A DNA stretch of 51,671 bases. Origin: Pseudomonadota bacterium. Lineage in GTDB: Bacteria; Pseudomonadota; Gammaproteobacteria; Ga0077536. The stretch covers positions 1-51,671 of the forward strand of contig JAYWAC010000010.1 in NCBI GenBank assembly GCA_043782755.1. The letters are read 5' to 3'. The notes beneath the pieces are model-generated. The model saw only the letters and a list, made by a program, of their open reading frames with translations, did no database searches and had not been told where the DNA came from. Below are positions 4,979 through 51,671 of this stretch, in pieces. The translations under genes and the position numbers were made by a program. Every line of letters starts with the position of its first letter. Position 1 is the first letter of the stretch.

Positions 4979-6839
4979 GCGTGGCGGCCAGTTCGAGTAC
5001 CACGTCGTTCATGCGCTTGACGAAGCCCGCCGGGTCTTCCAACTTGCCACCTTCGGCCAGGATCGATTGTTCGAACAACAGGCTTGCCCAGTTGGTGAAC
5101 TGCTGCTCGTCCTGCATGTGATCCATGAACTTGATCATCGGATGTTCAACGTTCAGTTCGAGGATGCGCTTGGCGGCGGGTACGTCCTGGCCGGCGGCTT
5201 TCAGGAGACGTTCGAGATTGGCGCTCATCGCGGCCTCAGCCGACACCAAACAGGCCGGCGAACTGGTCAGACGCTGACTGCGCTTGACGTCCTCGACGCG
5301 CGCAGCGAGCGCTTCCTTGATACGCTTCAAGAGCGGGCTGACTTCCTCATCCTGCTGCTTGTCCTGGTCCTCTTTGGTCTCGCTCTTGAGGTCGCCGTGC
5401 ACGACCGACTTCAACTGCTTGCCCTCGAATTCCGCGAGATGGGTCACCAGCCATTCGTCGATGGGCTCGTACATGAGCAGCACTTCAATACCGGCTTTAC
5501 GGAAGTATTCGAGATGAGGGCTGTTGCGTGCGGTCGAGAAACCGTCAGCGGCAATGTAGTAGACAGCGTCCTGAGCCTCTTTCATGCGTGACACATAGGC
5601 GGCGAGGCTGACATCCTGGGTGTCGGTATCGCTGTGGGTGCTGGCGAAGCGCAACAACTTGGCGATGCGCTCGCGATTGCTGAAGTCTTCGATCACGCCT
5701 TCTTTCAGCACGCGGCCAAAGGCTTCCCAGAAACTGGCGTAGTCCTCACCCTCGGCGAGCGTCTCTACCATGCCCAATACTTTCTTGACCGAGGCGTTGC
5801 GGATGGTTTCAAGGGTCTTGTTGTGCTGCAAGATTTCGCGCGAGACGTTGAGCGGCAGATCATTGGTATCGATCACACCGCGCACGAAGCGCAGATAACG
5901 CGGCATGAGCTTCTCGGCGTCGTCCATGATGAACACGCGCTGCACATAGAGCTTCACACCGTGCTTGACCTCACGGTCCCATAGATCGAAGGGCGCGCGC
6001 GCCGGCAGGTAGAACAGCGTGGTGTATTCGCTCTTACCCTCGACCTTGGAATGCAGCCAGCTGGTCGGGTCGCTGAAGTCATGGGAGACGTGTTTGTAGA
6101 ACGCTTTGTATTCCTCGTCGGTAATCTCGTGCTTGGAGCGACGCCACAGCGCGGTCGCCTGGTTGATGGTCTCCCAGCCCTTATCCTCACCGCTCTTGTG
6201 CATCTTGATCGGCAGGGCGATGTGGTCCGAGTAGCGCTTGCAGATGTCGCGCAGACGATATTCGTTGGCGAGATCCTTGGCGTCTTCCTTCAGATGCATG
6301 ACGATTTCGGTGCCGCGCTGCTTGGCGTTGACGGTCTCGACTGTGAACTCGCCCTTGCCTTGCGATTCCCAGCGTACGCCCTGCGCGGCGGCCACGCCGG
6401 CCTTGCGCGATGTGACGGTGACCTTGTCGGCGACGATGAAGGCGGCATAGAAGCCCACGCCGAACTGGCCGATGAGCTGCGAATCCTGGCGTGCGTCACC
6501 CGACAGCTTGCCGAAGAACTCGCGGGTGCCGGACTTGGCGATGGTGCCGAGGTTATCGACCGCCTCGTCGCGCGTCATGCCGATGCCGTTGTCGCGCAGC
6601 GTAATCGTGCCGGCCTCAGCGTCGAATTCGAGTTCGATGGCCAGTTCACCGTCATTCTCGTAGAGGCTGTCGTCGGATAGCGCCGCGAAGCGCAGCTTGT
6701 CGGCCGCGTCGGCGGCGTTCGAGACCAGCTCGCGCAGGAAGATCTCGCGGTTGCTGTATAGAGAGTTGATGACGAGGTCGAGTAGCTGGGTGACTTCCGA
6801 TTGGAATCCCCGTTGTTCTTTGGCAGTGTCCGGCGCCAT
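4971..6839 (-). CDS. htpG: Chaperone HtpG (Hsp90)
   Basis: YSNREIFLRELVSNA, DNGIGM, IGQFGVGFY, LPLNVSREILQ. Start moved to ATG 6839 (MAPDTAKE), which has an AGAGGA RBS. Confidence 0.97.
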   Translation of the reverse strand: MAPDTAKEQRGFQSEVTQLLDLVINSLYSNREIFLRELVSNAADAADKLRFAALSDDSLYENDGELAIELEFDAEAGTITLRDNGIGMTRDEAVDNLGTIAKSGTREFFGKLSGDARQDSQLIGQFGVGFYAAFIVADKVTVTSRKAGVAAAQGVRWESQGKGEFTVETVNAKQRGTEIVMHLKEDAKDLANEYRLRDICKRYSDHIALPIKMHKSGEDKGWETINQATALWRRSKHEITDEEYKAFYKHVSHDFSDPTSWLHSKVEGKSEYTTLFYLPARAPFDLWDREVKHGVKLYVQRVFIMDDAEKLMPRYLRFVRGVIDTNDLPLNVSREILQHNKTLETIRNASVKKVLGMVETLAEGEDYASFWEAFGRVLKEGVIEDFSNRERIAKLLRFASTHSDTDTQDVSLAAYVSRMKEAQDAVYYIAADGFSTARNSPHLEYFRKAGIEVLLMYEPIDEWLVTHLAEFEGKQLKSVVHGDLKSETKEDQDKQQDEEVSPLLKRIKEALAARVEDVKRSQRLTSSPACLVSAEAAMSANLERLLKAAGQDVPAAKRILELNVEHPMIKFMDHMQDEQQFTNWASLLFEQSILAEGGKLEDPAGFVKRMNDVVLELAATRG

Positions 6840-7027: not shown

Positions 7028-9583
7028 ATGGCTACCGATAAATCCGCCAATTCACCGGTCATGCAGCAGTTCCTCGGCATCAAGGCCGAGCATCCGGATA
7101 CGCTGCTGTTCTATCGCATGGGCGATTTCTATGAACTGTTCTTCGACGACGCCAAGCGCGCCGCGAAACTGCTCGATCTCACCCTGACCGCGCGCGGCAC
7201 CAGCGAGGGCCAGCCCATCCCGATGGCGGGCGTGCCTGCCCATGCCGCCGACCCGTATCTCGCGCGCCTCTTGAAGCTGGGTGTATCGGTCGCGATCTGC
7301 GAGCAGATAGGCGATCCGGCCGAATCGCGCGGGCCGGTGGCACGCAAGGTCACGCGCATCCTGACGCCGGGGACGGTGACCGACGAATCGCTGCTCGAAG
7401 CGCGCCAGGACACTTTGATTGCAGCCCTGGTATTTGCCGGCGAACGCAGCGGCCTGGCCTGGCTCGATGTCGGCGCCGGCCGCTTCCTGGTCTGTGAACC
7501 CGACAGCCCGACCGCACTCGAGGCCGAGCTCGAACGTCTGCAACCGGCGGAACTGCTGGTCGCCGATAACCAACGCAATCTGCTGCCAGCCGGCTGGGCG
7601 GCGCGCAGTCGGGGCGTGCCGGACTGGCGCTTCGATCTGACGGCGGCACGGCGACGCCTGTGCGAGCAGTTCGGAGTAAGCGATCTGCATGGTTATGGCT
7701 GCGCCAACTTCGAACCGGCCATCGCCGCCGCCGGTGCGGTGCTGGTCTACAGCCAGGAGATGCACGGCGGCGCGCTGGCCCATGTGCTGGGGCTCGCGGT
7801 CGAACGTCCGCAGGATGCCCTGTATCTCGATCCCGCCACCCGTCGTAATCTCGAAATCACACGGGCCTTGTCCGGCAATGATGTCCATACCCTGGTAGCG
7901 GTGTTCGACACCACGCGCACCGCGATGGGTGGGCGTCTGCTGCGGCGCTGGCTGCAACGCCCGCTGCGCGACCACGACACCCTGCGCCATCGCCAACAGG
8001 CGGTTGCGATGCTTATCGCCCGTCACGATGTCGCGGCCCTGCGCAGCGCCCTGCGGCGGGTGCATGACATCGAACGCATCGTCACCCGCGTCGCACTCGG
8101 CAGCGCGCGGCCACGCGATCTGGCGCGCCTGCGTGACGCCCTGGGTGTGCTGCCGGAACTGCGTGGCTTGCTGTTGCCGGACTTGACTCCAAGCCTTGAT
8201 GAATTGCGCTTGCGCATCGATGAAATGCCTGAGGTGCGCGCCTTACTCGAACGCGCGCTGGTCGAATCACCCGCCCATCTGATCCGCGATGGCGGCGTGC
8301 TGGCGCCGGGCTATGACAGCGAACTTGACGAGCTGCGCAACGCCAGCGCCGATGCCGATGCCTTTCTGGTCGCGCTCGAACAACGCGAACGCGAACGCAG
8401 TGGTATCACTAATCTGCGCGTCGGTTACAACCGCGTGCACGGCTACTATATCGAGATCAGCCGCGCCCAGGCCGAGCGCGCACCGGCCGACTACACCCGA
8501 CGTCAGACCCTGAAAGGTGTGGAGCGCTACATCACGCCCGAACTGAAGGGTTTTGAGACCCATATCCTGACCGCCGCCGATCGCGCCTTGAGACGTGAAC
8601 GCGAGCTCTATGAAAGCCTGCTGATCGAACTGCTGCCGCAAGTACGCGCGCTGCAGGACACCAGCGCAGCGCTGGCCGAGTTGGATGTGTTGGCGAGTTT
8701 CGCCGAACGCGCCGAGAGCTTGCAGCTCTGCGCGCCCGAGTTCTGCACTGAACCGCGCCTCAGTATCACCGATGGCCGTCATCCGCTGGTCGAACAATTC
8801 CAGGACACGCCTTTCGTTGCCAACGATCTGGAACTCGACGACACGCGTCGTCTGCTGCTCATCACCGGCCCCAATATGGGCGGCAAATCGACCTATATGC
8901 GCCAGGCCGCGCTCATCACCCTGCTCGCCCACATTGGCAGTTTCGTGCCGGCGCGCGCCGCCTTACTCGGCCCCATCGACGCCATCTATTCGCGCATCGG
9001 CGCCGGCGACAATCTCGCCGGCGGCCAGAGCACCTTCATGGTCGAAATGGCCGAGACCGCCAACATCCTCCATCACGCCACCGCCGCGAGCCTGGTCATC
9101 GTCGACGAGATCGGGCGCGGCACCAGCACCTATGACGGCATGTCGCTGGCCTGGGCGGCGGCCGAGCATCTGGCCCAGCGCAATCGCGCCTTCACGCTAT
9201 TCGCGACCCATTATTTCGAGCTGACCGCGCTTGCCGACGAAGTGTCGGCGGTGGCCAATGTGCGGCTCGACGCGGTTGAGCACGGCGAGGACGTGGTGTT
9301 CATGCACAGCGTCAGTGAAGGGCCGGCCTCACGCAGCTTCGGCATTGCCGTGGCGCGCCGCGCCGGCGTACCCGTGGCTGTCATCGCCCGTGCCCGTGCA
9401 CTGCTCGCCACGCTCGAACGCCGCCACCAACAACAAAGTCATCATGAGACGCCGCAATTGCCCCTGTTCGATCGGCCGCACCCCGCGCTCGTCGCCTTGG
9501 GTGACCTGGATCCGGACACTCTGACGCCGCGTGAGGCCCTGGAAGCCCTGTATCGCCTGCGTACGCTGATCGAACACTCATGA
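7028..9583 (+). CDS. mutS: DNA mismatch repair protein MutS
   Basis: [49 protein letters not shown] and beta-clamp-like QLPLF. Start ATG 7028 preferred. Confidence 0.97.
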
Positions 9584-10897: not shown

Positions 10898-13444
10898 ATG
10901 AATAAAGCGTTCTGGAAATCCGACTGGTTTGTCGGCGCCGCCCTGTCCTTCGTGTTCTTCATCGCTTGGTGGGGACGCGCGCCGCTGTTGGAAAGCATCG
11001 AGCGGGACGCCTACGACCTCGGCGTGCGCACCGCGTCGCGTGATCCAGGCGACAAGGTCGTGGTGGTCGCCATCGACGATAAGAGTATCCAGAACATCGG
11101 TCGCTGGCCTTGGTCGCGCAAGGTCCACGCCGCGATGATCGACAAGCTCGCACAAGCCGGCGCCAAGACCATCGGCTCCACCATCTTCTATTCCGAACCG
11201 GAAGTACCGCCGGGCCTCGACTGGATACGCGAATTCCGCTCTGAGACTGGAAAGCTCGCCCAGGCGGGTGTGGCGGTTGATGCCCTCAACAAGAAATTCA
11301 GTGAAGCCGAACTCGCGCTTGACACCGACAGCGTGCTCGGCAATTCCTTCAAGCACGCCGGTAACGTGGTGCTCGGCATGCAGTTCACACCGGGTGAACC
11401 AGTCGGCAAGCCCGACAAACCCCTGCCCGACTACATCCTGCGGAACGCCATCAAGGAAGACAAGGTCGTCGATCCGAGCGGCGAATTTCCGATGCCTGTG
11501 CAGACCGTGCTCGCCGACTCTCCGATTCCAGTGGTCGGTGAAGCCGCACGCGGCATCGGTCACCTGCTCAATCCGCCCGATGTCGATGGCGGTATCCGCT
11601 TCGAACCGCTGGTGGTCGAGTATTACGGCGCTTTCTATCCCGCCCAATCGCTGATGGTCGCGGCGGCTTATCACAACCTCAAGGCCGAGGACATCAAAGT
11701 CAATCTCGGCGACAGCGTTCAGCTCGGCAACCTCAAGATCAAGACCGATCTGAACCTCAACATGAACACGTTCTTCTACAGCAAACGTCAGGGACACCCT
11801 GCGCCGTTCGACATCTATTCGTTCTACGACGTCCAACAGGGCGCCGTGCCGATGGAAAACTTCAAGGATAAAATTGTCCTGATCGGCGCTACCGCTTTCG
11901 GTGTCGGCTCCTCGTTCCATATTCCGCTGGGGGGCGATCCTGCCAGCCCGGTGCTGATCATGGCCCACACGGTGGCCAGCATTCTTAACGAGGCGTTCTT
12001 CATCGCGCCGTCATGGGCGGGCATCACCGAGCTGGTCGTGCTGCTCGTGATTGCAGCCTATTTGATCAGCCTGTTACCCAAGCTCAGTGCCGGGCCAGCA
12101 GCGCTGTTAAGCCTGGGCTTGTTCGTGCTGGTCATTGCCACCGAAATCGGTCTGATGGCGTCGCAGGCCATCTGGTTGAAATTGACCGGCGCGGCGACCT
12201 TGCTCGTCATCGGCCATGTGTTGCTTACCACCAAGCGCTTCCTGGTCACCGAAGCCACCAAGCGCCGCCTCGACTATGATTCGGCCCAGAGCAACAAGCA
12301 GCTCGCGCTCAAATTCCAGAAGGAAGGCGAGCTCGACATGGCGCTGGAGTATTTCCGCCGCTGTCCGGTGGATGAGAGTCTGCTGGAAGCGGTCTACATC
12401 CTGGCCGGCGACTTCGAGCGCAAGCGGCAGTTCAACAAGGCCGGCGCGGCTTACGAATACATCGCCGCCAAGGACCCGAACTTCCGCGACATCAAGAATA
12501 AGGTCAACCGCGCCAAGCAGCTCAACGACACGGTCATCCTCGGCGGCTCGGCGGCGGCCGCTACGGCGGCCAGCACCATGCTGCTCGACGGCAGCATCTC
12601 CAAGCCCATGCTCGGCCGCTACGAAGTCGACAAGGAACTCGGCAAGGGTGCGATGGGCGTGGTCTATCTCGGCAAGGATCCGAAGATCAACCGCGTGGTG
12701 GCGATCAAGACCATGGCCTTATCTCAGGAATTCGACCCGGCCGAACTGAACGAGGTCAAGGAACGCTTCTTCCGCGAAGCGGAAACCGCCGGTCGCCTCG
12801 ATCAGCCGAATATCGTGCGCATCTACGACGTCGGCGAAGAACACGATCTTGCCTACATCGCCATGGAGTTCCTGGCCGGTCACGATCTGGCCCGCTACAC
12901 CAAGCCCGACACTCTGCTGCCGCTGCCGACCGTGATGGGCATCATCTTCAAGGCCGCCATGGCGCTCGACTACGCGCACAAACACAACGTCGTGCATCGC
13001 GATATCAAGCCGGCCAATATCATGTACGAGCCGGAATCCAAGCAGGTCAAACTGACCGACTTCGGTATCGCGCGCATCACCGACTCAAGCAGGACCAAGA
13101 CCGGCATGGTGCTCGGCACGCCATCCTATATGTCGCCCGAGCAGCTGTCGGGCAAGAAGGTCGACGGCCGTTCCGATCTGTTCTCCCTGGGTGTGATGTT
13201 CTACCAGATGATCACCGGCAAGCTGCCCTTCCAGGGGGACTCGATGGCGACCCTCATGTACAAGATTGCCAACGAGGCGCATACCGAGGTCACCACCCTG
13301 CGTCCGGATCTGGCCAAGCAGCGCCCCTGTGTGTCCGAGATCATCAATCGGGCGCTGGTAAAGGATCCCTCCAAGCGTTATCAGACCGGCGCCGAAATGG
13401 CGCGCGACATTCAGCGCTGTGCCAAGCAGACCCAGTCGGCCTGA
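10898..13444 (+). CDS. Membrane Hanks-type Ser/Thr kinase with periplasmic CHASE2 sensor
   Basis: N-terminal TM, CHASE2 motifs (VVAIDDKS..IGRWPWSR, DVDGGIR, DKIVLIGATA), three TMs, then LGKGAMGVVY, VAIK, HRDIKPAN, DFGIAR, GTPSYMSPEQ. Confidence 0.92.
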   Translation: MNKAFWKSDWFVGAALSFVFFIAWWGRAPLLESIERDAYDLGVRTASRDPGDKVVVVAIDDKSIQNIGRWPWSRKVHAAMIDKLAQAGAKTIGSTIFYSEPEVPPGLDWIREFRSETGKLAQAGVAVDALNKKFSEAELALDTDSVLGNSFKHAGNVVLGMQFTPGEPVGKPDKPLPDYILRNAIKEDKVVDPSGEFPMPVQTVLADSPIPVVGEAARGIGHLLNPPDVDGGIRFEPLVVEYYGAFYPAQSLMVAAAYHNLKAEDIKVNLGDSVQLGNLKIKTDLNLNMNTFFYSKRQGHPAPFDIYSFYDVQQGAVPMENFKDKIVLIGATAFGVGSSFHIPLGGDPASPVLIMAHTVASILNEAFFIAPSWAGITELVVLLVIAAYLISLLPKLSAGPAALLSLGLFVLVIATEIGLMASQAIWLKLTGAATLLVIGHVLLTTKRFLVTEATKRRLDYDSAQSNKQLALKFQKEGELDMALEYFRRCPVDESLLEAVYILAGDFERKRQFNKAGAAYEYIAAKDPNFRDIKNKVNRAKQLNDTVILGGSAAAATAASTMLLDGSISKPMLGRYEVDKELGKGAMGVVYLGKDPKINRVVAIKTMALSQEFDPAELNEVKERFFREAETAGRLDQPNIVRIYDVGEEHDLAYIAMEFLAGHDLARYTKPDTLLPLPTVMGIIFKAAMALDYAHKHNVVHRDIKPANIMYEPESKQVKLTDFGIARITDSSRTKTGMVLGTPSYMSPEQLSGKKVDGRSDLFSLGVMFYQMITGKLPFQGDSMATLMYKIANEAHTEVTTLRPDLAKQRPCVSEIINRALVKDPSKRYQTGAEMARDIQRCAKQTQSA

Positions 13445-45128: not shown

Positions 45129-46406
45129 CTAGATGATATAGCCGCGCTCGTCGTGTTCGCCCAGGTCAAGACCCTCGGTCTCGGTCTCCGGGGCGACACG
45201 CAGCCCAACCATGGCCTGAGTGAGCTTCAGCAGGACAAAGGTCAGCACACCGCAGTAGACACCAATGGTGACGATGCCGAGCAACTGCACCGAGATCTGA
45301 CGACCTAGCGTCATGCCCGCCACCAGACCCTTGCCGCCCAGGTCTGCGGAAACGACCACGCCCGCCATAAAAGTACCGAGAATACCGCCGACGCCATGCA
45401 CCGGAAAAACGTCCAGCGAGTCGTCAATGCGCAGCACGCGCTTGATGAGCTGGGTACTGAAGTAACACACCACACCGGCTATGAGACCGATCATGAGCGC
45501 TCCCATGGGGCCGGCTACACCCGAGGCTGGTGTAATCGTACCGAGACCCGCCACCATGCCGGTGACAATGCCGAGCACACTGGGCTTGCCATGCTTGAAC
45601 CATTCGACCGTCATCCATGACAGCGAACCGGCCGCAGCGGCGATATGGGTAACCAGCATCGCCATGCCGGCGTCACCGTTGACGGCCGCCGCACTGCCGG
45701 CGTTGAAGCCGAACCACCCAACCCACAACATCGACGCACCGGTTACGGTCATGGTCAGGTTATGGGGCGGCATGGCGGTCTGCGGAAAGCCGCGACGGTT
45801 GCCGAGCTGTATCGCCGCCACCAGCGAAGCGACGCCGGCATTGATATGCACGACTGTGCCACCCGCGAAATCGAGCAAGCCCATTTGCATGAGCCAACCA
45901 TTGCCCCACACCCAATGGCAGACCGGCACGTAGACCAGCATCAACCATAAGGAGCTGAACACGATCACTGCTGAAAATTTCATACGTTCCGCATAGCTAC
46001 CAAGCACCAGCGCCGGGGTGATGATGGCGAATGTCATCTGGAACATGAGGAACACGGATTCGGGAATGGTGCCGCTCACGCTGTCGCGAGTCACGCCTGT
46101 TAGCAGAAACTTGCCGCCGCCGATGACGTCGTTCCACACACCGCCGTCGCCGAAGGCCAGCCCATAGCCCGCCACCACCCACAGCAGCGAGACCAGACAG
46201 GTCAAGGAGAAACACTGCATGAGGATGGATAGGACGTTCTTGCTACGGACCAGGCCGCCGTAGAACAGCGCGAGACCCGGCAAGGTCATGAATAACACCA
46301 ACGCCGTCGAGGTCAGCATCCAGGCGCCATCGCCACTATTAATGCCTTCGGCACTCGCCAGCCATGGCATGGCCGACAAAAAAAGCCCGAGCAGAATGCG
46401 CGACAT
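45129..46406 (-). CDS. amtB: Ammonium transporter
   Basis: PGLALFYGG, DFAGGTVVH, LWVGWFGFNAGS, DDSLDVF.VHG. Confidence 0.96.
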   Translation of the reverse strand: MSRILLGLFLSAMPWLASAEGINSGDGAWMLTSTALVLFMTLPGLALFYGGLVRSKNVLSILMQCFSLTCLVSLLWVVAGYGLAFGDGGVWNDVIGGGKFLLTGVTRDSVSGTIPESVFLMFQMTFAIITPALVLGSYAERMKFSAVIVFSSLWLMLVYVPVCHWVWGNGWLMQMGLLDFAGGTVVHINAGVASLVAAIQLGNRRGFPQTAMPPHNLTMTVTGASMLWVGWFGFNAGSAAAVNGDAGMAMLVTHIAAAAGSLSWMTVEWFKHGKPSVLGIVTGMVAGLGTITPASGVAGPMGALMIGLIAGVVCYFSTQLIKRVLRIDDSLDVFPVHGVGGILGTFMAGVVVSADLGGKGLVAGMTLGRQISVQLLGIVTIGVYCGVLTFVLLKLTQAMVGLRVAPETETEGLDLGEHDERGYII

Positions 46407-46731
46407 GGATGTCCTCCCCGAAAGCGTTTTGTTATTTCCTGCTCACCGCTGCCGTGCGACTGGCAGATTTATGGGGTGAGACTGTCTTCGGCGACGACGT
46501 GACACGAGAAGAGCGGGAATTAAAGCCCGTCTCGCGAAAATTTCACGAATATCGCCCACACGGGGATCGCCGGCGTGGTGCGGAACCGCCCAAGTTCCAC
46601 AGTCGCCGATCAATCCTTCGGTGCAAATTGCTCCACGACTCGCCCCGCAAGGGGTCGGTCACGGTAGCCTGCTATTCAGATCATGCCATCGACAGATTAA
46701 GGATGGCCAAGAAACCCTGAAAGGACTGGCG

Positions 46732-47145
<414 letters not shown>

Positions 47146-47197
47146 CTAACTCGTATAAGAATAACGGCTCGTCAAGCCAGCGGAAACGACCGCCGGC

Positions 47198-48025
47198 TTA
47201 CCAGGCGCTCGATACCGCGAACACTACACCGTTGCACAGACCGTCTTTGCCGGTAATCTTGGTGCAGCCGTTGTCAGCGTCGTTCCACGACAAGTTCAGC
47301 GTGAGCTTACCAACCGCCTTGCTCACACCAATCGAGTAGTGGACATAGTCGTAACCGCCGATCGCGCCACTGGTCTTATCACCATCGACTGTCAGATAAC
47401 CGACCGTTGCCGACAGGCCAATGTCATAAGGCAGCGTCACCCCAAAAGTGCCGAACCCGTAGACACCGGTGCCATCCTCGCCGAAGTAGTCCGGCGAATA
47501 GTAGACGCCGCCCTTGACTGTCGGGCTATAAGTGACGCCGGTGAAGGCATAGCTGGTCTTAAAGTACACTTCTTCGTAGCCATAATCGGCGCCCCCGAAG
47601 GTCACCACACCAGTGTTCTTGTCGACGATCTTGCCGTCTTCATTCTGCCCCGGGTAGGAGTAATAGATGCCACCCACATCCCAGCCGATTCCGTTACTCA
47701 ACGCGCCGGAGAAGCCCCCGTAATAATCGAGCTCCATCGACGCGCGATTATTGACGCCTTTGCTTGGCGTGCCGTTCACGGCCAGTTCGACGTTGGATGC
47801 CCAAGCGCCGGCATAGAAACCGACTGGCGTGTACTGGTAATCAAATCCACCCTGAATGGCCGGGCCATCGTCGGTCTGCGTGATGCCCCGGAACATATAG
47901 TCCGTGGTCAGTGCCACATTGGCGGCGAACACATGAGGCGGCTTGGCTTCCTCGTCCGCAATTGCACCCATCGAAACGCTTGCCAGCGCGACGGCCGCGC
48001 CAATTACACTCAGTTTATACATCAC
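47198..48025 (-). CDS. TorF family putative outer-membrane porin
   Basis: Signal peptide, TTDYMFRGITQT..PAIQGGFDY, GFYAGAWASNV, ELDYYGG, terminal aromatic residue; family commonly lies upstream of glnK-amtB. Confidence 0.85.
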   Translation of the reverse strand: MMYKLSVIGAAVALASVSMGAIADEEAKPPHVFAANVALTTDYMFRGITQTDDGPAIQGGFDYQYTPVGFYAGAWASNVELAVNGTPSKGVNNRASMELDYYGGFSGALSNGIGWDVGGIYYSYPGQNEDGKIVDKNTGVVTFGGADYGYEEVYFKTSYAFTGVTYSPTVKGGVYYSPDYFGEDGTGVYGFGTFGVTLPYDIGLSATVGYLTVDGDKTSGAIGGYDYVHYSIGVSKAVGKLTLNLSWNDADNGCTKITGKDGLCNGVVFAVSSAW

Positions 48026-48106
48026 TTTCGTATCCTCCGGACTTTCAAAAATTTATCGCTTCTCACTTGCTCCGCAGAGCCAGGTCAGAAGCTGTTGACC
48101 AGCATA

Positions 48107-48122
48107 TGCACCATGTATGCCA
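48107..48122 (-). promoter_or_regulatory. Sigma54 -24/-12 promoter of porin-glnK-amtB
   Basis: Minus strand TGGCATACATGGTGCA fits GG-N10-GC. Confidence 0.7.
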
Positions 48123-48209
48123 TGGATGAAATAATAATTTAAAATTTGATAGTTACAAGATCTTTGTAAAGAATAGTCTTAGAAAAATAGACACACTTGA
48201 CGAAGTCTT

Positions 48210-48256
48210 CGCACCACTGCGAAGCAGGCTTGCGCAAATTGCACTTCCGAGGTGCG
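48210..48256. promoter_or_regulatory. Two NtrC-like enhancer sites
   Basis: TGCACT-TCCGA-GGTGCG (48240-48256, strong) and CGCACC-ACTGC-GAAGCA (48210-48226, weak) against TGCACC-N5-GGTGCA; 30 bp apart, with an AT-rich spacer toward the sigma54 site. Confidence 0.65.
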
Positions 48257-48320
48257 ATTACGGAGCTGGCGGCTAATGCGCTCGCCCATTACCCTTGCCG
48301 GGCACACGAGGACGCGAACA

Positions 48321-48572
48321 GTGATCGACTTGAAGATGATTGAAGGCATAAGTGAGCGGATCGGCGCCTTGCTACCGGCCGACCTGGGCGCGCTGCGCTC
48401 CGAGTTCAAGACCAACGTCAAAGCGCTGCTGGAAGCCAGCCTGACGCGCATGGACGTCGTCACACGCGAGGAATTCGACGCCCAGAGCGCGCTTTTGCGG
48501 CGCACTCGCGAGAAGCTCGACAAACTCGAGAAACTGCTCGCAGAGCTTGAGGAGGCCACACTGCGGGCCTGA
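48321..48572 (+). CDS. ubiK: Ubiquinone biosynthesis accessory factor UbiK (YqiC/BMFP family)
   Basis: MDVVTREEFDAQ..LL.RTREKL..LE; GTG start with GAGGA RBS; usual neighbour of glnK and comM. Confidence 0.88.
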   Translation: MIDLKMIEGISERIGALLPADLGALRSEFKTNVKALLEASLTRMDVVTREEFDAQSALLRRTREKLDKLEKLLAELEEATLRA

Positions 48573-48686: not shown

Positions 48687-49730
48687 ATGTCTATCGCACT
48701 TGTTTATACCCGCTGCCAGGACGGCATGGACGCCCTGGCGATCTGCGTCGAAACCCATCTCTCCAACGGTCTGCCGTCCTTCACCATCGTCGGCCTGCCG
48801 GAAACCGCCGTGCGGGAAAGCCGCGAGCGGGTACGTTCGGCTCTGATCAACTCCGGTTTCGAGTTCCCCCAGCGTCGCATCACAGTCAACCTTGCACCTG
48901 GCGATATCCCCAAAGAAGGCACGCGCTTCGATCTGGCGATAGCTATCGGCATCCTCGCCGCCTCGCATCAGATCCCTCTTCCCCCACTCGCCCAGGCCGA
49001 ATTCATCGGCGAACTGGCGCTCGACGGTGGACTACGAGCGGTGGGGACGACTTTGGCGTCGGCACTTGCTGCCCGCGATGCCGGGCACGCGCTGTTCGTC
49101 GCTGGCGTCGATGCCGACGAAGCGGCACTCATCGACGGCGCGGAGGTGCACGCGGCGGTGTCTTTACGCGAGGTCTGTATGCATCTGCAAGGCCACGCTC
49201 GATTGTCTGTGCGGAACGTCCCTAAACGCGTGCGCGATGATTCGCGCCTGCCCGATCTGACGGATGTGGTCGGACAACCACGTGCGCGACGCGCGCTCGA
49301 AATCGCGGCCGGAGGCGGACACAACCTGCTGCTGATCGGCCCACCGGGCACGGGTAAGACCATGCTCGCCACGCGTCTCCCCGGCCTGCTGCCGCCACTC
49401 AACGAGGAACAGGCGCTAACGGTAGCGGCTATCCACTCGGTGGCCGCTCAGCCCTCGCGCCTGGCCGACTGGCGCTCACCACCCTATCGCGCACCCCACC
49501 ATTCGGCCTCGGCCGTCGCCCTGGTCGGTGGCGGGCGGATACCGCGTCCAGGCGAGATTTCTCTCGCACACCACGGCGTGCTGTTCATGGACGAACTGCC
49601 AGAATTCGAACGGCGCGCATTGGAGGCGCTGCGCGAGCCGCTGGAGTCCGGTCAGATCACCGTCGCACGCGCAGCCCGCGCCGTGCGCTACCCAGCCAGC
49701 TTTCTCCTGATTGCCGCCATGAATCCCTGA
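48687..49730 (+). pseudogene. comM: ComM/YifB Mg-chelatase-like AAA+ helicase, 3'-truncated (347 aa) by an integration
   Basis: [24 protein letters not shown], Walker [33 protein letters not shown]; ends at LIAAMNP-TGA where the family continues CPCG to about 500 aa. Confidence 0.9.
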
Positions 49731-51220
49731 GGATTCATTGCCAAACTGTCACGCTCTAAGCCTTTCTTTTGAAAGGGTTGAGGAAGGTAGAGTAGTGATA
49801 TATCGACGTCACCATCACCAATAGTGATCTGTTCGGTAATTGATTCAACGATCCCTCGTTTCTCTTCCGTAGGAAGAGAAGGCCATCGTTCATAGAGCGT
49901 CTCAGCTCCCTGCATCATCTCTTCTCTTGAAAGCCTCGAAATCTTCATCACATCGATTTGTGCCTCAAGGCGTGGCATCTCTTCATCGAGTTGCTTCCGT
50001 CGTTCGTCGAGCGAAAAGAAGCGACCGCCGAAGGCTTCCTTCGAAATGTTGTCCGACTGATATAAGGAATAGAGCTTCTCGGTCTCGGTCGCGAGTTTTC
50101 GGCTTTCGGACTGGAGCGATTTAAGAAGCGCGATCTTTTCGTGCACCGCCGCATCAGCCTGGTCGAGATAGCCAGCGATCTCGTCAGACGAAAACGAGAA
50201 GTGCCGGATCTGCTCACGGAAGATGTCTTCCATGGCGTCAATCGGCATCTTGTTCCGGCAGGAGTAACAGACGTACTTCGGCATATTCGAAGGGACATAC
50301 ATCTTGCCGCCGCAGGCGCACTCAATAAAGCCGGCGAAGAGATGCACCGGCCGCTTGGCAACTCGCTTCCTGGCTGTCCGCTGGGTGTCAAGGAACGCAT
50401 TGCAGGCCAACCAAAGCTCCTCGGACACGACAGCCTCGACCGGGTGGTGAATCCAATCGCTCTCGGGTTTCAGCTTCCAGGCCTTCTTGTTGTCCGTGGA
50501 CGAGGTGTAGTTCGCGCGGCGGAGCCCTTTCGCGGTCGGGTCCCTGAGAAGTCGGTCAACCGTCGTATCTGAGAACTTCGAGCCGTTCCGGGTCCGGTGC
50601 CCCTGCTCATTCAGAAGCCGCGCAACAGTCTTCTTTCGCTTATGGAGCGCAAACAACTCATACATGAGCTTCCGTACCGGCGCTTCCTTCGTATCTACCT
50701 TCAGTTCCTGGCCATCCCACCGGTACCCAAATGGTGCAGCGCCACCAAGCGGCTTCCCGAGCTTGGCCCGGATCGGGACCGAGACCGCCACGCGTTCTGC
50801 GATTTCTTCACGCTCCCATTGCGCCATGGCGGCAATCATGGTGTAAAAGAGGCGGCCGGCAGGGGTCGTGGTGTCGATCGATTCTTGAAGGGAAATGAGG
50901 TCGGCGCCGGCATCCCGGAAGAGATCCGAGAAATCGAGCAGCTCTCGGGTGCTCCGGGCGAGTCGGGCAAGCTTTGAGAAGATCAGACCGGTGATTCGGC
51001 CCGCCTGGATGTCGGCGACCATCCGTGTCGCTTCTGGGTGGTCCATGACCGCTTTACCGGAAACGCCTTCGAGGTGGTACACCTCGACCACATTCCAGCC
51101 CTTCGCCTCGGCATAGTAGCGGGCGCGGCGTTCATGGTGCTCGGGACTTTCGCCCCGCGCTTGGTCTTCGGTCGATACCCGAATCCAGATACCGACTCGT
51201 TTGCTTTCGGCTATGCCCAT
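49688..51220 (-). CDS. Large serine recombinase (integrase)
   Basis: WIRVSTEDQ catalytic Ser, [29 protein letters not shown], Zn ribbon CACGG...C.SC, coiled coil; ATG 51220 with GAGGTG RBS; 510 aa. Confidence 0.93.
49716..49741. mobile_element. Hybrid att junction of a serine-recombinase element inserted in comM
   Basis: gccATGAATCC-ctga-GGATTCATtgc inverted repeat (8 bp perfect, 10/11 overall) around a central TG at 49728-49729. GC is 45/60 at 49621-49680 and 26/60 at 49741-49800. Confidence 0.8.
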
Positions 51221-51671
51221 CGAACATCCCACCTCGCTGGAGATCCATCCCGACAAGCGCATTATCTCAAGGCACACTCGCCAACTCAAATTATTTTTCT
51301 TTATTTTTCATAAAGTAAGTGGGCTAGAGCCAAATCAATTAACTGACGTCATACATTGCAACGACGGAGTGGCCCATCTGAAGTTTTGTATGCCCAACCG
51401 GCAGTGGTAGGAAAGACCGGTATTCGGATTAACATGGCATAACGGAAGTCGCTGATTAAGCGCTATACGGACATCTGTCGGTCAGCTTAGGGGGAATCTT
51501 GTACTGGTTCAGGGCCTTTCGTCGTGAAAGTCCGGTAGACGTGCTCGCCGTGCTGAAAGCCGGTGATTTACCAAACCCCGATCCGGACTCCATTTCACGC
51601 CAGAACGAAGCCGAATTGGGATTTCCATCCGCATGCGTATACGCGTATCTCGGACAGACTCTCGAAGCCTT
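49730..51671. mobile_element. Left end of a genomic island integrated in comM, continuing beyond the window
   Basis: att junction, adjacent recombinase, and lower GC including an AT-rich stretch near 51280-51350. Confidence 0.82.
51499..51671 (+). CDS. Possible first cargo gene, 3' end outside the window
   Basis: TTG start after AGGGGG; frame open for 57 codons to the window end (MYWFRAFRRESPVDVLAVLKAGDL...VYAYLGQTLEA). Confidence 0.3.
   Translation, partial: MYWFRAFRRESPVDVLAVLKAGDLPNPDPDSISRQNEAELGFPSACVYAYLGQTLEA

Follow-up and report, generated by a model that had tools for sequence, protein, structure and literature searches.

A large serine recombinase gene with its attachment site inside the reading frame: integration into comM very probably detaches a helix-turn-helix module

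The 51,671-nucleotide stretch analysed here (the window) is the whole of contig C10 (JAYWAC010000010.1) from a gammaproteobacterial draft genome (GCA_043782755.1; 345 contigs, 93.9% complete), and towards its end the host gene comM is interrupted by a mobile element whose large serine recombinase (LSR) gene runs across the junction on the minus strand. The window very probably holds the attL junction of an element that carries attP inside its LSR gene, between the enzyme core and a C-terminal helix-turn-helix (HTH) module, so that integration detaches the HTH tail from the protein. As reconstructed from the sequences of relatives, the free circle is shown to encode an Int-HTH protein and the integrated copy a tail-less Int, and by homology the same would apply to the copy in the window.

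The recombinase gene and its junction with comM

The integrated (attL) form of the LSR gene occupies positions 49688..51220 of the minus strand and encodes 510 amino acids, the likely start being the ATG at 51220, which has GAGGTGG in front; the full open reading frame (ORF) covers 49688..51289 and stops at the TAG at 49688-49690. The Resolvase (PF00239, E 5e-33) and Recombinase (PF07508, E 5e-17) families are both recognised by Pfam, and the Zn_ribbon_recom model has no match to the window protein at E 0.001. As far as the sequence can tell, the LSR core is intact, with complete catalytic, recombinase and zinc-ribbon/coiled-coil parts. The catalytic RVSTEDQ motif is unchanged throughout a 16-sequence alignment, in which four cysteines are invariant, namely C302, C304, C319 and C322 in the numbering of the 511-aa search query (49688-51223, one extra leading residue compared with the 510-aa protein), and in the model of a relative, L024, the zinc-ribbon strands are separated by long helices at 340-443. 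The best sequence match in the PDB is the catalytic domain of the TP901-1 integrase (E 9e-20); this search covered the catalytic domain only and does not place the end of the LSR core.

The interrupted gene retains its 5′ part at 48687..49730 of the plus strand, with 347 codons for the ChlI domain (PF13541) and most of the Mg_chelatase AAA+ domain (positions 1-158 of 207 of PF01078). The comM reading frame from 48687 terminates as ...FLLIAAMNP followed by a TGA at 49728-49730, which is made up of the crossover TG and a single element base. In same-genus genomes comM is uninterrupted, and homologues with a 526-aa frame run ...AAMNPCPCGF... for about 160 further residues. The GC content drops from 0.69 to 0.48 on crossing the junction from comM into the element.

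The attB-derived half-site of attL lies on the host side at 49705..49727, with an approximate outer limit, and its consensus, ...GC.GCgATGAAtCCc directly before TG, was built from 25 phase-0 and 33 phase-2 junctions, the phase denoting the frame in which the recombinase ORF passes the junction. The crossover dinucleotide TG at 49728..49729, placed in the window by alignment with the relatives' junctions, provides the first two bases of a comM Cys codon and reads CA on the recombinase strand; the same CA is present at all 57 comM junctions in the genomes and all 58 in the metagenomes surveyed below (115/115), and the TG is also the symmetry centre of the attP sites rebuilt in nine relatives. 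On the other side, the attP-derived half-site (P′ arm) at 49730..49752, AGGATT CATTGCC AAAC TGTCAC, lies within the recombinase coding sequence and fits the family consensus TG-N6-CGTTGCC-N4-TGCCA, and both this arm and the reading frame of the window agree with phase 0. An inverted repeat surrounds the junction, with arms of 11 nt at 49716-49726 and 49731-49741 that are 91% complementary and spaced by 4 nt. The sites are thus short and quasi-palindromic with a non-palindromic 2-bp crossover, as is typical of LSRs, the window itself displaying attL only. Taken together, the aligned junctions show that the target of the LSR in comM is the TG of the Cys codon, between AAMNP and CPCG.

The first-pass annotation of this DNA had described a recombinase ORF that meets no stop within the element, continues across the att core and terminates 12 codons into the antisense strand of comM, and a direct reading of the sequence confirms this description. 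The host-derived tail spans 49688..49727 on the minus strand and consists of the last base of a Gln codon, 12 antisense comM codons and the TAG stop. The peptide AMNP, as had likewise been pointed out, is present in both ComM and the recombinase; the AMNP codons of the latter (49730-49741) come from the element and the Gln codon straddles the crossover.

Read-through across the junction in relatives

A scan of one genome per species returned 357 relatives, of which the best 80, from many phyla and 59-69% identical to the window protein, were retained; metagenome contigs contained at least 564 relatives, and a second set of 80 loci was analysed from these, ten of them duplicating genome loci. 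In 57 of the 80 genome loci the recombinase gene is followed directly by the 5′ half of comM in antisense orientation, and the recombinase ORF crosses the break in 55 of those 57 as well as at 57 of the 58 comM junctions in the metagenome set, where three of the 57 ORFs are still open at the contig end. In one locus, L026, the ORF is broken far upstream of the junction. The frame is phase 0, as in the window, at 24 genome and 38 metagenome loci and phase 2 at 33 and 20, respectively, while phase 1 occurs in neither set. Judged by these counts, the near-universal crossing of the junction by the ORF is not due to chance. Stops before att or read-through in random frames had been named beforehand as outcomes that would speak against a meaningful read-through; the crossing itself proves to be nearly universal, and the frame is less uniform, since two of the three frames are used and an arrangement of opposite orientation exists in addition.

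The peptide appended by the host is variable. The host-derived stretch measures 25-490 nt in phase 0, with the 40 nt of the window recurring in 7/24 genome and 6/38 metagenome loci, and 11-332 nt in the phase-2 genome loci, of which twenty have 26 nt. The TAG of the window is the antisense of the host codons C-TAC-CC, which belong to the conserved Y/F-P-A stretch of ComM, and tail length therefore tracks host codon choice. Thirteen phase-0 relatives stop at the position of the window, mostly with ..RAG or ..LAG, and of the tail sequences inspected only that of the window contains RRK. With tails of 11-490 nt in two frames, the integrated isoform shows no conserved C-terminal recognition motif, and the tail as such looks incidental, a by-product of the insertion. 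The earlier proposal that the host-derived RRKLAG acts as a degron or activity switch consequently finds no support, the tail being conserved neither in length nor in sequence or frame.

Rebuilt attP sites and the HTH module

The far junctions of nine elements, four of phase 0 and five of phase 2, were located on long contigs by a search of the relatives' genomes for Mg_chelatase_C. By the junction coordinates, the elements with both ends known measure approximately 28-50 kb. Each of the nine adjoins comM at its far end exactly before TG, where the gene resumes with CPCG, CRCG or CFCG, and joining of the host halves restores ...AAMNPCPCG..., while joining of the element halves gives the symmetric site TGGCA-N4-GGCAACG-N6-TG-N6-CGTTGCC-N4-TGCCA. 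The recombinase ORF of the rebuilt attP form remains open into the far-end DNA in 9/9 relatives, extending 83, 152, 153 and 169 codons past the crossover in phase 0 and 145-216 codons in phase 2. Each of the nine far-end pieces scores HTH_3 above the Pfam cut-off and contains one to three XRE-type HTH stretches. At attR, no start preceded by a Shine-Dalgarno sequence is found upstream of the first HTH in any of the nine, so the detached HTH piece is probably silent.

The att DNA, with a single geometry, is read in two frames, as AT..Q followed by GRVAFLP in phase 0 and as QRN. followed by IPALPFCH in phase 2, and after att both types of ORF return to the same HTH protein sequence. Selection therefore appears to act on the continuity of the ORF and not on the peptide, which argues for att DNA that is constrained as DNA, with the frame through it kept open by whatever peptide results. 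The position of this peptide is illustrated by the structure that AlphaFold2 predicts for an unsplit relative (mean predicted local distance difference test score, pLDDT, 72.8), where the LSR core ends near residue 471, the region at 462-528 that holds the att-coded peptide has pLDDT < 50 and an HTH domain follows at ~530-590 with pLDDT 81-90. The attP site is thus predicted by the model to be located in a disordered linker between the LSR core and the HTH module.

An attP site within the int ORF, with a product that is changed by integration, is accordingly present in all nine rebuilt relatives and in the natural unsplit genes described below, and in the window it is indicated by the attL half. 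The first-pass annotation had suggested that integration alters the C-terminus of the integrase and that the excised and integrated forms encode different isoforms. This part stands as a prediction; in the relatives, the change is not an exchange of short tails but the loss of an HTH-domain module. It had also recommended finding the distal junction and rebuilding attP, which was achieved in the nine relatives, all of them open into HTH, and not for the element of the window, whose distal junction was not found.

More complex far ends are seen in two genomes. In the L036 genome, two attR-like junctions lie ~34 kb apart (L095 and L096; G026:C4:122500-126500 and 88800-92800), each with a comM 3′ copy, the outer one bearing an HTH piece that is truncated; this arrangement looks like a tandem or decayed array. 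At L099 (G030:C12:1453300-1459300) two comM 3′ copies are ~2 kb apart, and only one of them adjoins an att-like element end.

Unsplit genes and opposite-orientation insertions

Single ORFs of ~590-690 aa in which the recombinase and the HTH module are naturally unsplit occur at 10/80 genome and 8/80 metagenome loci (2 duplicates), and continue past the core as ...AT..H/Q-G/R-RVAFLP...LGEHI.KRRLELGL.Q...WE.G. In all nine that were tested, Resolvase, Recombinase and an HTH family (HTH_3; HTH_31 in one) score above the Pfam cut-off within one ORF. Among the neighbours of two unsplit genes are genes for coupling-protein-like ATPases and for Endonuclease I, and in the integrated L040 island genes of the same kinds adjoin the HTH piece, which fits a circular permutation of one backbone.

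A third class of insertions has the opposite orientation and carries TG on the recombinase strand. Here the recombinase ORF continues in frame into the comM 3′ part (L051:10001-11932, a 643-aa ORF; L062), and the comM 5′ part continues in frame into the HTH piece (L108, G104:C34:249400-252000, and L110, with open frames of 462 and 523 aa); two further such loci, L178 and L180, are found in the metagenome set. As read from these open frames, the integrase and ComM exchange domains reciprocally and in frame in this arrangement.

Several loci have features of their own. Around the unsplit Int-HTH gene of L024, extra small HTH_3 ORFs are found at 5593-5994, 7028-7285 and 11907-12173, which may be HTH remnants of previous elements. 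At L055 (G107:C210) a full-length comM is located just upstream of the recombinase on the same strand, with a second comM 5′ half antisense downstream, and this element may carry its own comM copy. The L040 island (L106 and L107, G025:C3:48800-80600), ~30.6 kb long, contains a second LSR, an XamI-type restriction enzyme, an Eco57I-type methylase, an E1/ThiF-JAB gene set, an AHH nuclease with Imm11 immunity, RadC, Endonuclease I and coupling-protein-like ATPases. Directly upstream of its integrase there is an XRE repressor and M78 peptidase pair; such a pair as a family trait was rejected when searched with the L040 query (1/68 loci), and the upstream fragment in the window has no similarity to it.

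Proposed mechanism

The LSR would insert its own element into comM, with the TG of the Cys codon as the recombination point and attP in the linker that connects an LSR core of ~480 residues to its C-terminal module, which consists of one to three XRE-type HTHs. Integration would split the gene so that the core keeps its promoter at attL and gains antisense comM codons up to a chance stop, and the HTH-coding piece would move to attR, ~30-50 kb away in relatives. The HTH module might serve the free form, either by extra DNA binding at or near attP or by regulation of element genes, although confidence in this role is low; its function would be switched off on integration and restored by excision, in both cases automatically.

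A further, more speculative step is that the state of the DNA picks the integrase isoform, with the HTH tail as a sensor and effector of integration status and with ComM(N)-HTH and Int-ComM(C) chimeras made by the opposite-orientation class; this is entertained as a tentative possibility. Int-HTH could aid the capture of attP or hold the element genes in a "free" programme, and the loss of the HTH could lock the integrated state or bias direction without a classical recombination directionality factor (RDF). It had been remarked earlier that no RDF gene is visible, and indeed no RDF candidate is found in the window or in the one annotated island (L040).

Alternative explanations

That the junction is a sequencing or assembly artefact has a negligible probability. 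The draft genome is fragmented into 345 contigs, but contigs assembled from two public runs of a single study (X1 record 1 and X2 record 9), which may be the window's own source sample, span 48700-50535 and 48700-50339 with 0 differences and bridge the junction, which is therefore not an assembly error, and the same architecture recurs at 115 other comM junctions. Among the joints and loose ends listed for these run contigs, as assembled and hence with rare variants dropped, none falls at 49728-49730. It is likewise very unlikely that the host-derived tail (..IRRKLAG) is functional as a ClpX-type degron or directionality switch. The tail does exist, thirteen phase-0 relatives share its stop position with mostly similar endings, and ClpX recognises C-terminal tails such as that of MuA; against this stand the range of lengths, the two frames, the stop set by host comM codons and the restriction of RRK to the window, and antisense codons of a conserved AAA+ motif in the host would be hard for selection to shape.

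The observations against a split Int-HTH gene concern the HTH module itself and the state of the copy in the window. In 12 valid pairs, the L065 pairs being left out, pN/pS, the ratio of nonsynonymous to synonymous change, is 0.28-0.62 for the HTH piece and 0.11-0.30 for the core. The HTH values by themselves count in favour of a selected fusion, but the constraint is weaker than on the core, and all these values are rough because most pairs are close to saturation at synonymous sites (pS 0.66-0.80). At two integrated loci, L014 in the genome set and L113 in the metagenome set, a stop 29 nt before the crossover terminates the integrase inside the element. The weaker constraint and the early stops would both suit a model in which a compact attP brings about the read-through and the in-frame HTH as a neutral consequence, the HTH being dispensable or a separate gene and only the LSR core being of importance; LSR cores in the studied systems are not known to need an extra domain for integration. 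This model is nevertheless considered improbable, since all nine rebuilt ORFs and 18 natural unsplit ones (10 + 8) are open and in frame, continuity is kept by all three frame and orientation solutions, and the HTH piece at attR lacks a Shine-Dalgarno-preceded start in 9/9. Also unfavourable to the split-gene reading is that unsplit Int-HTH genes lie on long contigs (L020, 594 kb, and L119, 360 kb; also L019, L023 and L024), with an intact comM on another contig in 4/5 genomes that have them, so that an attP-bearing intact gene can sit in the chromosome, a situation not accounted for by the simple model. For these genomes, an inversion between attP and comM on one contig was considered and dropped, as the comM genes are on other contigs. 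Finally, searches of the draft assembly recovered neither the far junction and HTH piece of the window element nor the comM 3′ part. A PF13335 profile search for the comM 3′ part had 0 matches there, a tblastn search of the assembly with the C-terminal parts of five relatives' ComM reached at best E 0.026, and a tblastn search with the HTH pieces of four relatives gave a sole match in C103 (E 0.03), which was rejected as the far-end piece, being an unrelated HTH gene that adjoins a putative toxin gene. Since the far junction is missing from the assembly, the attP of the window was not rebuilt and the HTH tail of this copy follows from homology. The missing pieces, along with the presence of the recombinase in only 2/81 genomes of the host family (the window's own and one other, hence no close sister element that could serve as a substitute), would also fit a stranded remnant whose far end and comM 3′ part have been deleted, leaving excision impossible and the ORF end without a present role. 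Such a remnant is unlikely, if slightly less so than a neutral HTH, given that the recombinase ORF is unbroken and retains every invariant residue and that the depth of the run contigs over the junction region, only ~4-7, is alone enough to explain missing contigs.

Comparison with known systems

The integrase of Myxococcus phage Mx8 is reportedly a tyrosine recombinase. Its attP is situated within int, which on integration acquires a new 3′ end and is not inactivated, according to the part of the literature consulted (PMC6070905), so that the comparison with Mx8 drawn in the first-pass annotation is apt. The Mx8 system (intP/intX) and the comM family share an attP inside the int coding sequence and a new 3′ end upon integration; Mx8, in contrast, has another target and an altered C-terminal end, while the comM family has a whole HTH module detached. 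In the SSV1-type integrases that archaeal viruses and plasmids encode, which are tyrosine recombinases with tRNA-gene targets, the integrase gene holds attP and is partitioned, and the split divides the enzyme itself. These enzymes are referred to as "split upon integration" in the relevant passage of PMC8371274. The comM-family gene resembles them in holding attP and being partitioned, and differs in that its LSR core remains whole. Being a serine recombinase, the window enzyme works like the Mx8 and SSV1 systems without belonging to them. In mycobacteriophage BPs, the split gene is said to be the repressor and the lost part a degradation tag. The attP site of BPs lies inside a regulatory gene, and the integrated and free forms encode proteins of different lengths, as described in a passage of PMC4557955. 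Unlike BPs, with its repressor gene and tyrosine integrase, the comM family has the integrase gene split and an HTH module, not a tag, removed.

Canonical serine integrases (phiC31, Bxb1, A118, TP901-1 and SPbeta SprA) are described as having attP outside the int ORF, and their direction is set by a separate RDF. They share with the window enzyme the resolvase, recombinase and zinc-ribbon/coiled-coil parts, the short att sites and the 2-bp crossover. The matches in plasmid and phage collections are at most ~30% identical, and none covers the HTH tail of the comM family. An exact 35-base pattern from the element side had 0 matches in metagenome contigs, and exact peptide patterns from a single protein had no match in viral contigs, which reflects the limit of such patterns and is not evidence of absence. 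An LSR preprint reports, in the portions consulted, an LSR with a conserved intragenic target, which is presumably a gene of the comM/yifB type; its main text has 0 occurrences of "helix-turn-helix" and "chelatase", and the passages at hand describe no split integrase gene. In the open-access papers and bioRxiv preprints searched, no account was found of an LSR gene whose HTH tail is split off, nor of such an attP position in a serine integrase; tyrosine enzymes (Mx8, SSV1) are known to carry attP within int. That an extra C-terminal domain on an LSR changes the behaviour of the enzyme is indicated by engineered integrase-RDF fusions (PMC5737554, in part), and the PDB holds an SPbeta integrase-YotN fusion chain. 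Such fusions are man-made, whereas that of the comM family is natural and is made and broken by recombination, with no evidence that its HTH acts as an RDF.

Serine integrases are valued as tools for being simple and directional, and the control of direction is an active question. If the proposed mechanism is true, recombination that adds or removes the enzyme's own DNA-binding domain would represent a new layer of control in a widespread family, and would offer a natural design for state-reporting or self-limiting integration systems. For annotation, integrated copies would receive spurious host-derived tails, and orphan HTH pieces beside the comM 3′ part would be called separate genes. The choice of target is of relevance because of its link with transformation: inactivation of comM by diverse mobile elements has been linked to lower natural transformation and may protect the elements from removal, as stated in the portion consulted of PMC11472951.

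Surroundings of the junction

The rest of the element to the contig end (51221..51671, minus strand) is an AT-richer region upstream of the recombinase gene with unidentified ORF fragments, three of which match no Pfam family at E up to 1. The element extends past the window, one of the run contigs reaching 226 bases beyond 51671.

In a same-genus genome, a contig (L007, G010:C515:1-2539) stops within 1-2 codons of the same comM break point, residues 1-346 of the comM query being matched from base 2. That genome contains no recombinase match at E 1e-50, and the contig end may represent a polymorphic insertion of another element.

Upstream of comM, positions 45129-48572 of the window hold an ORF of 425 aa for a putative membrane protein, ORFs of 112 and 275 aa and a gene of the BMFP family, assigned by Pfam. 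The 112-aa ORF looks like a PII-type regulator, which, like the membrane-protein label, is read from the translation.

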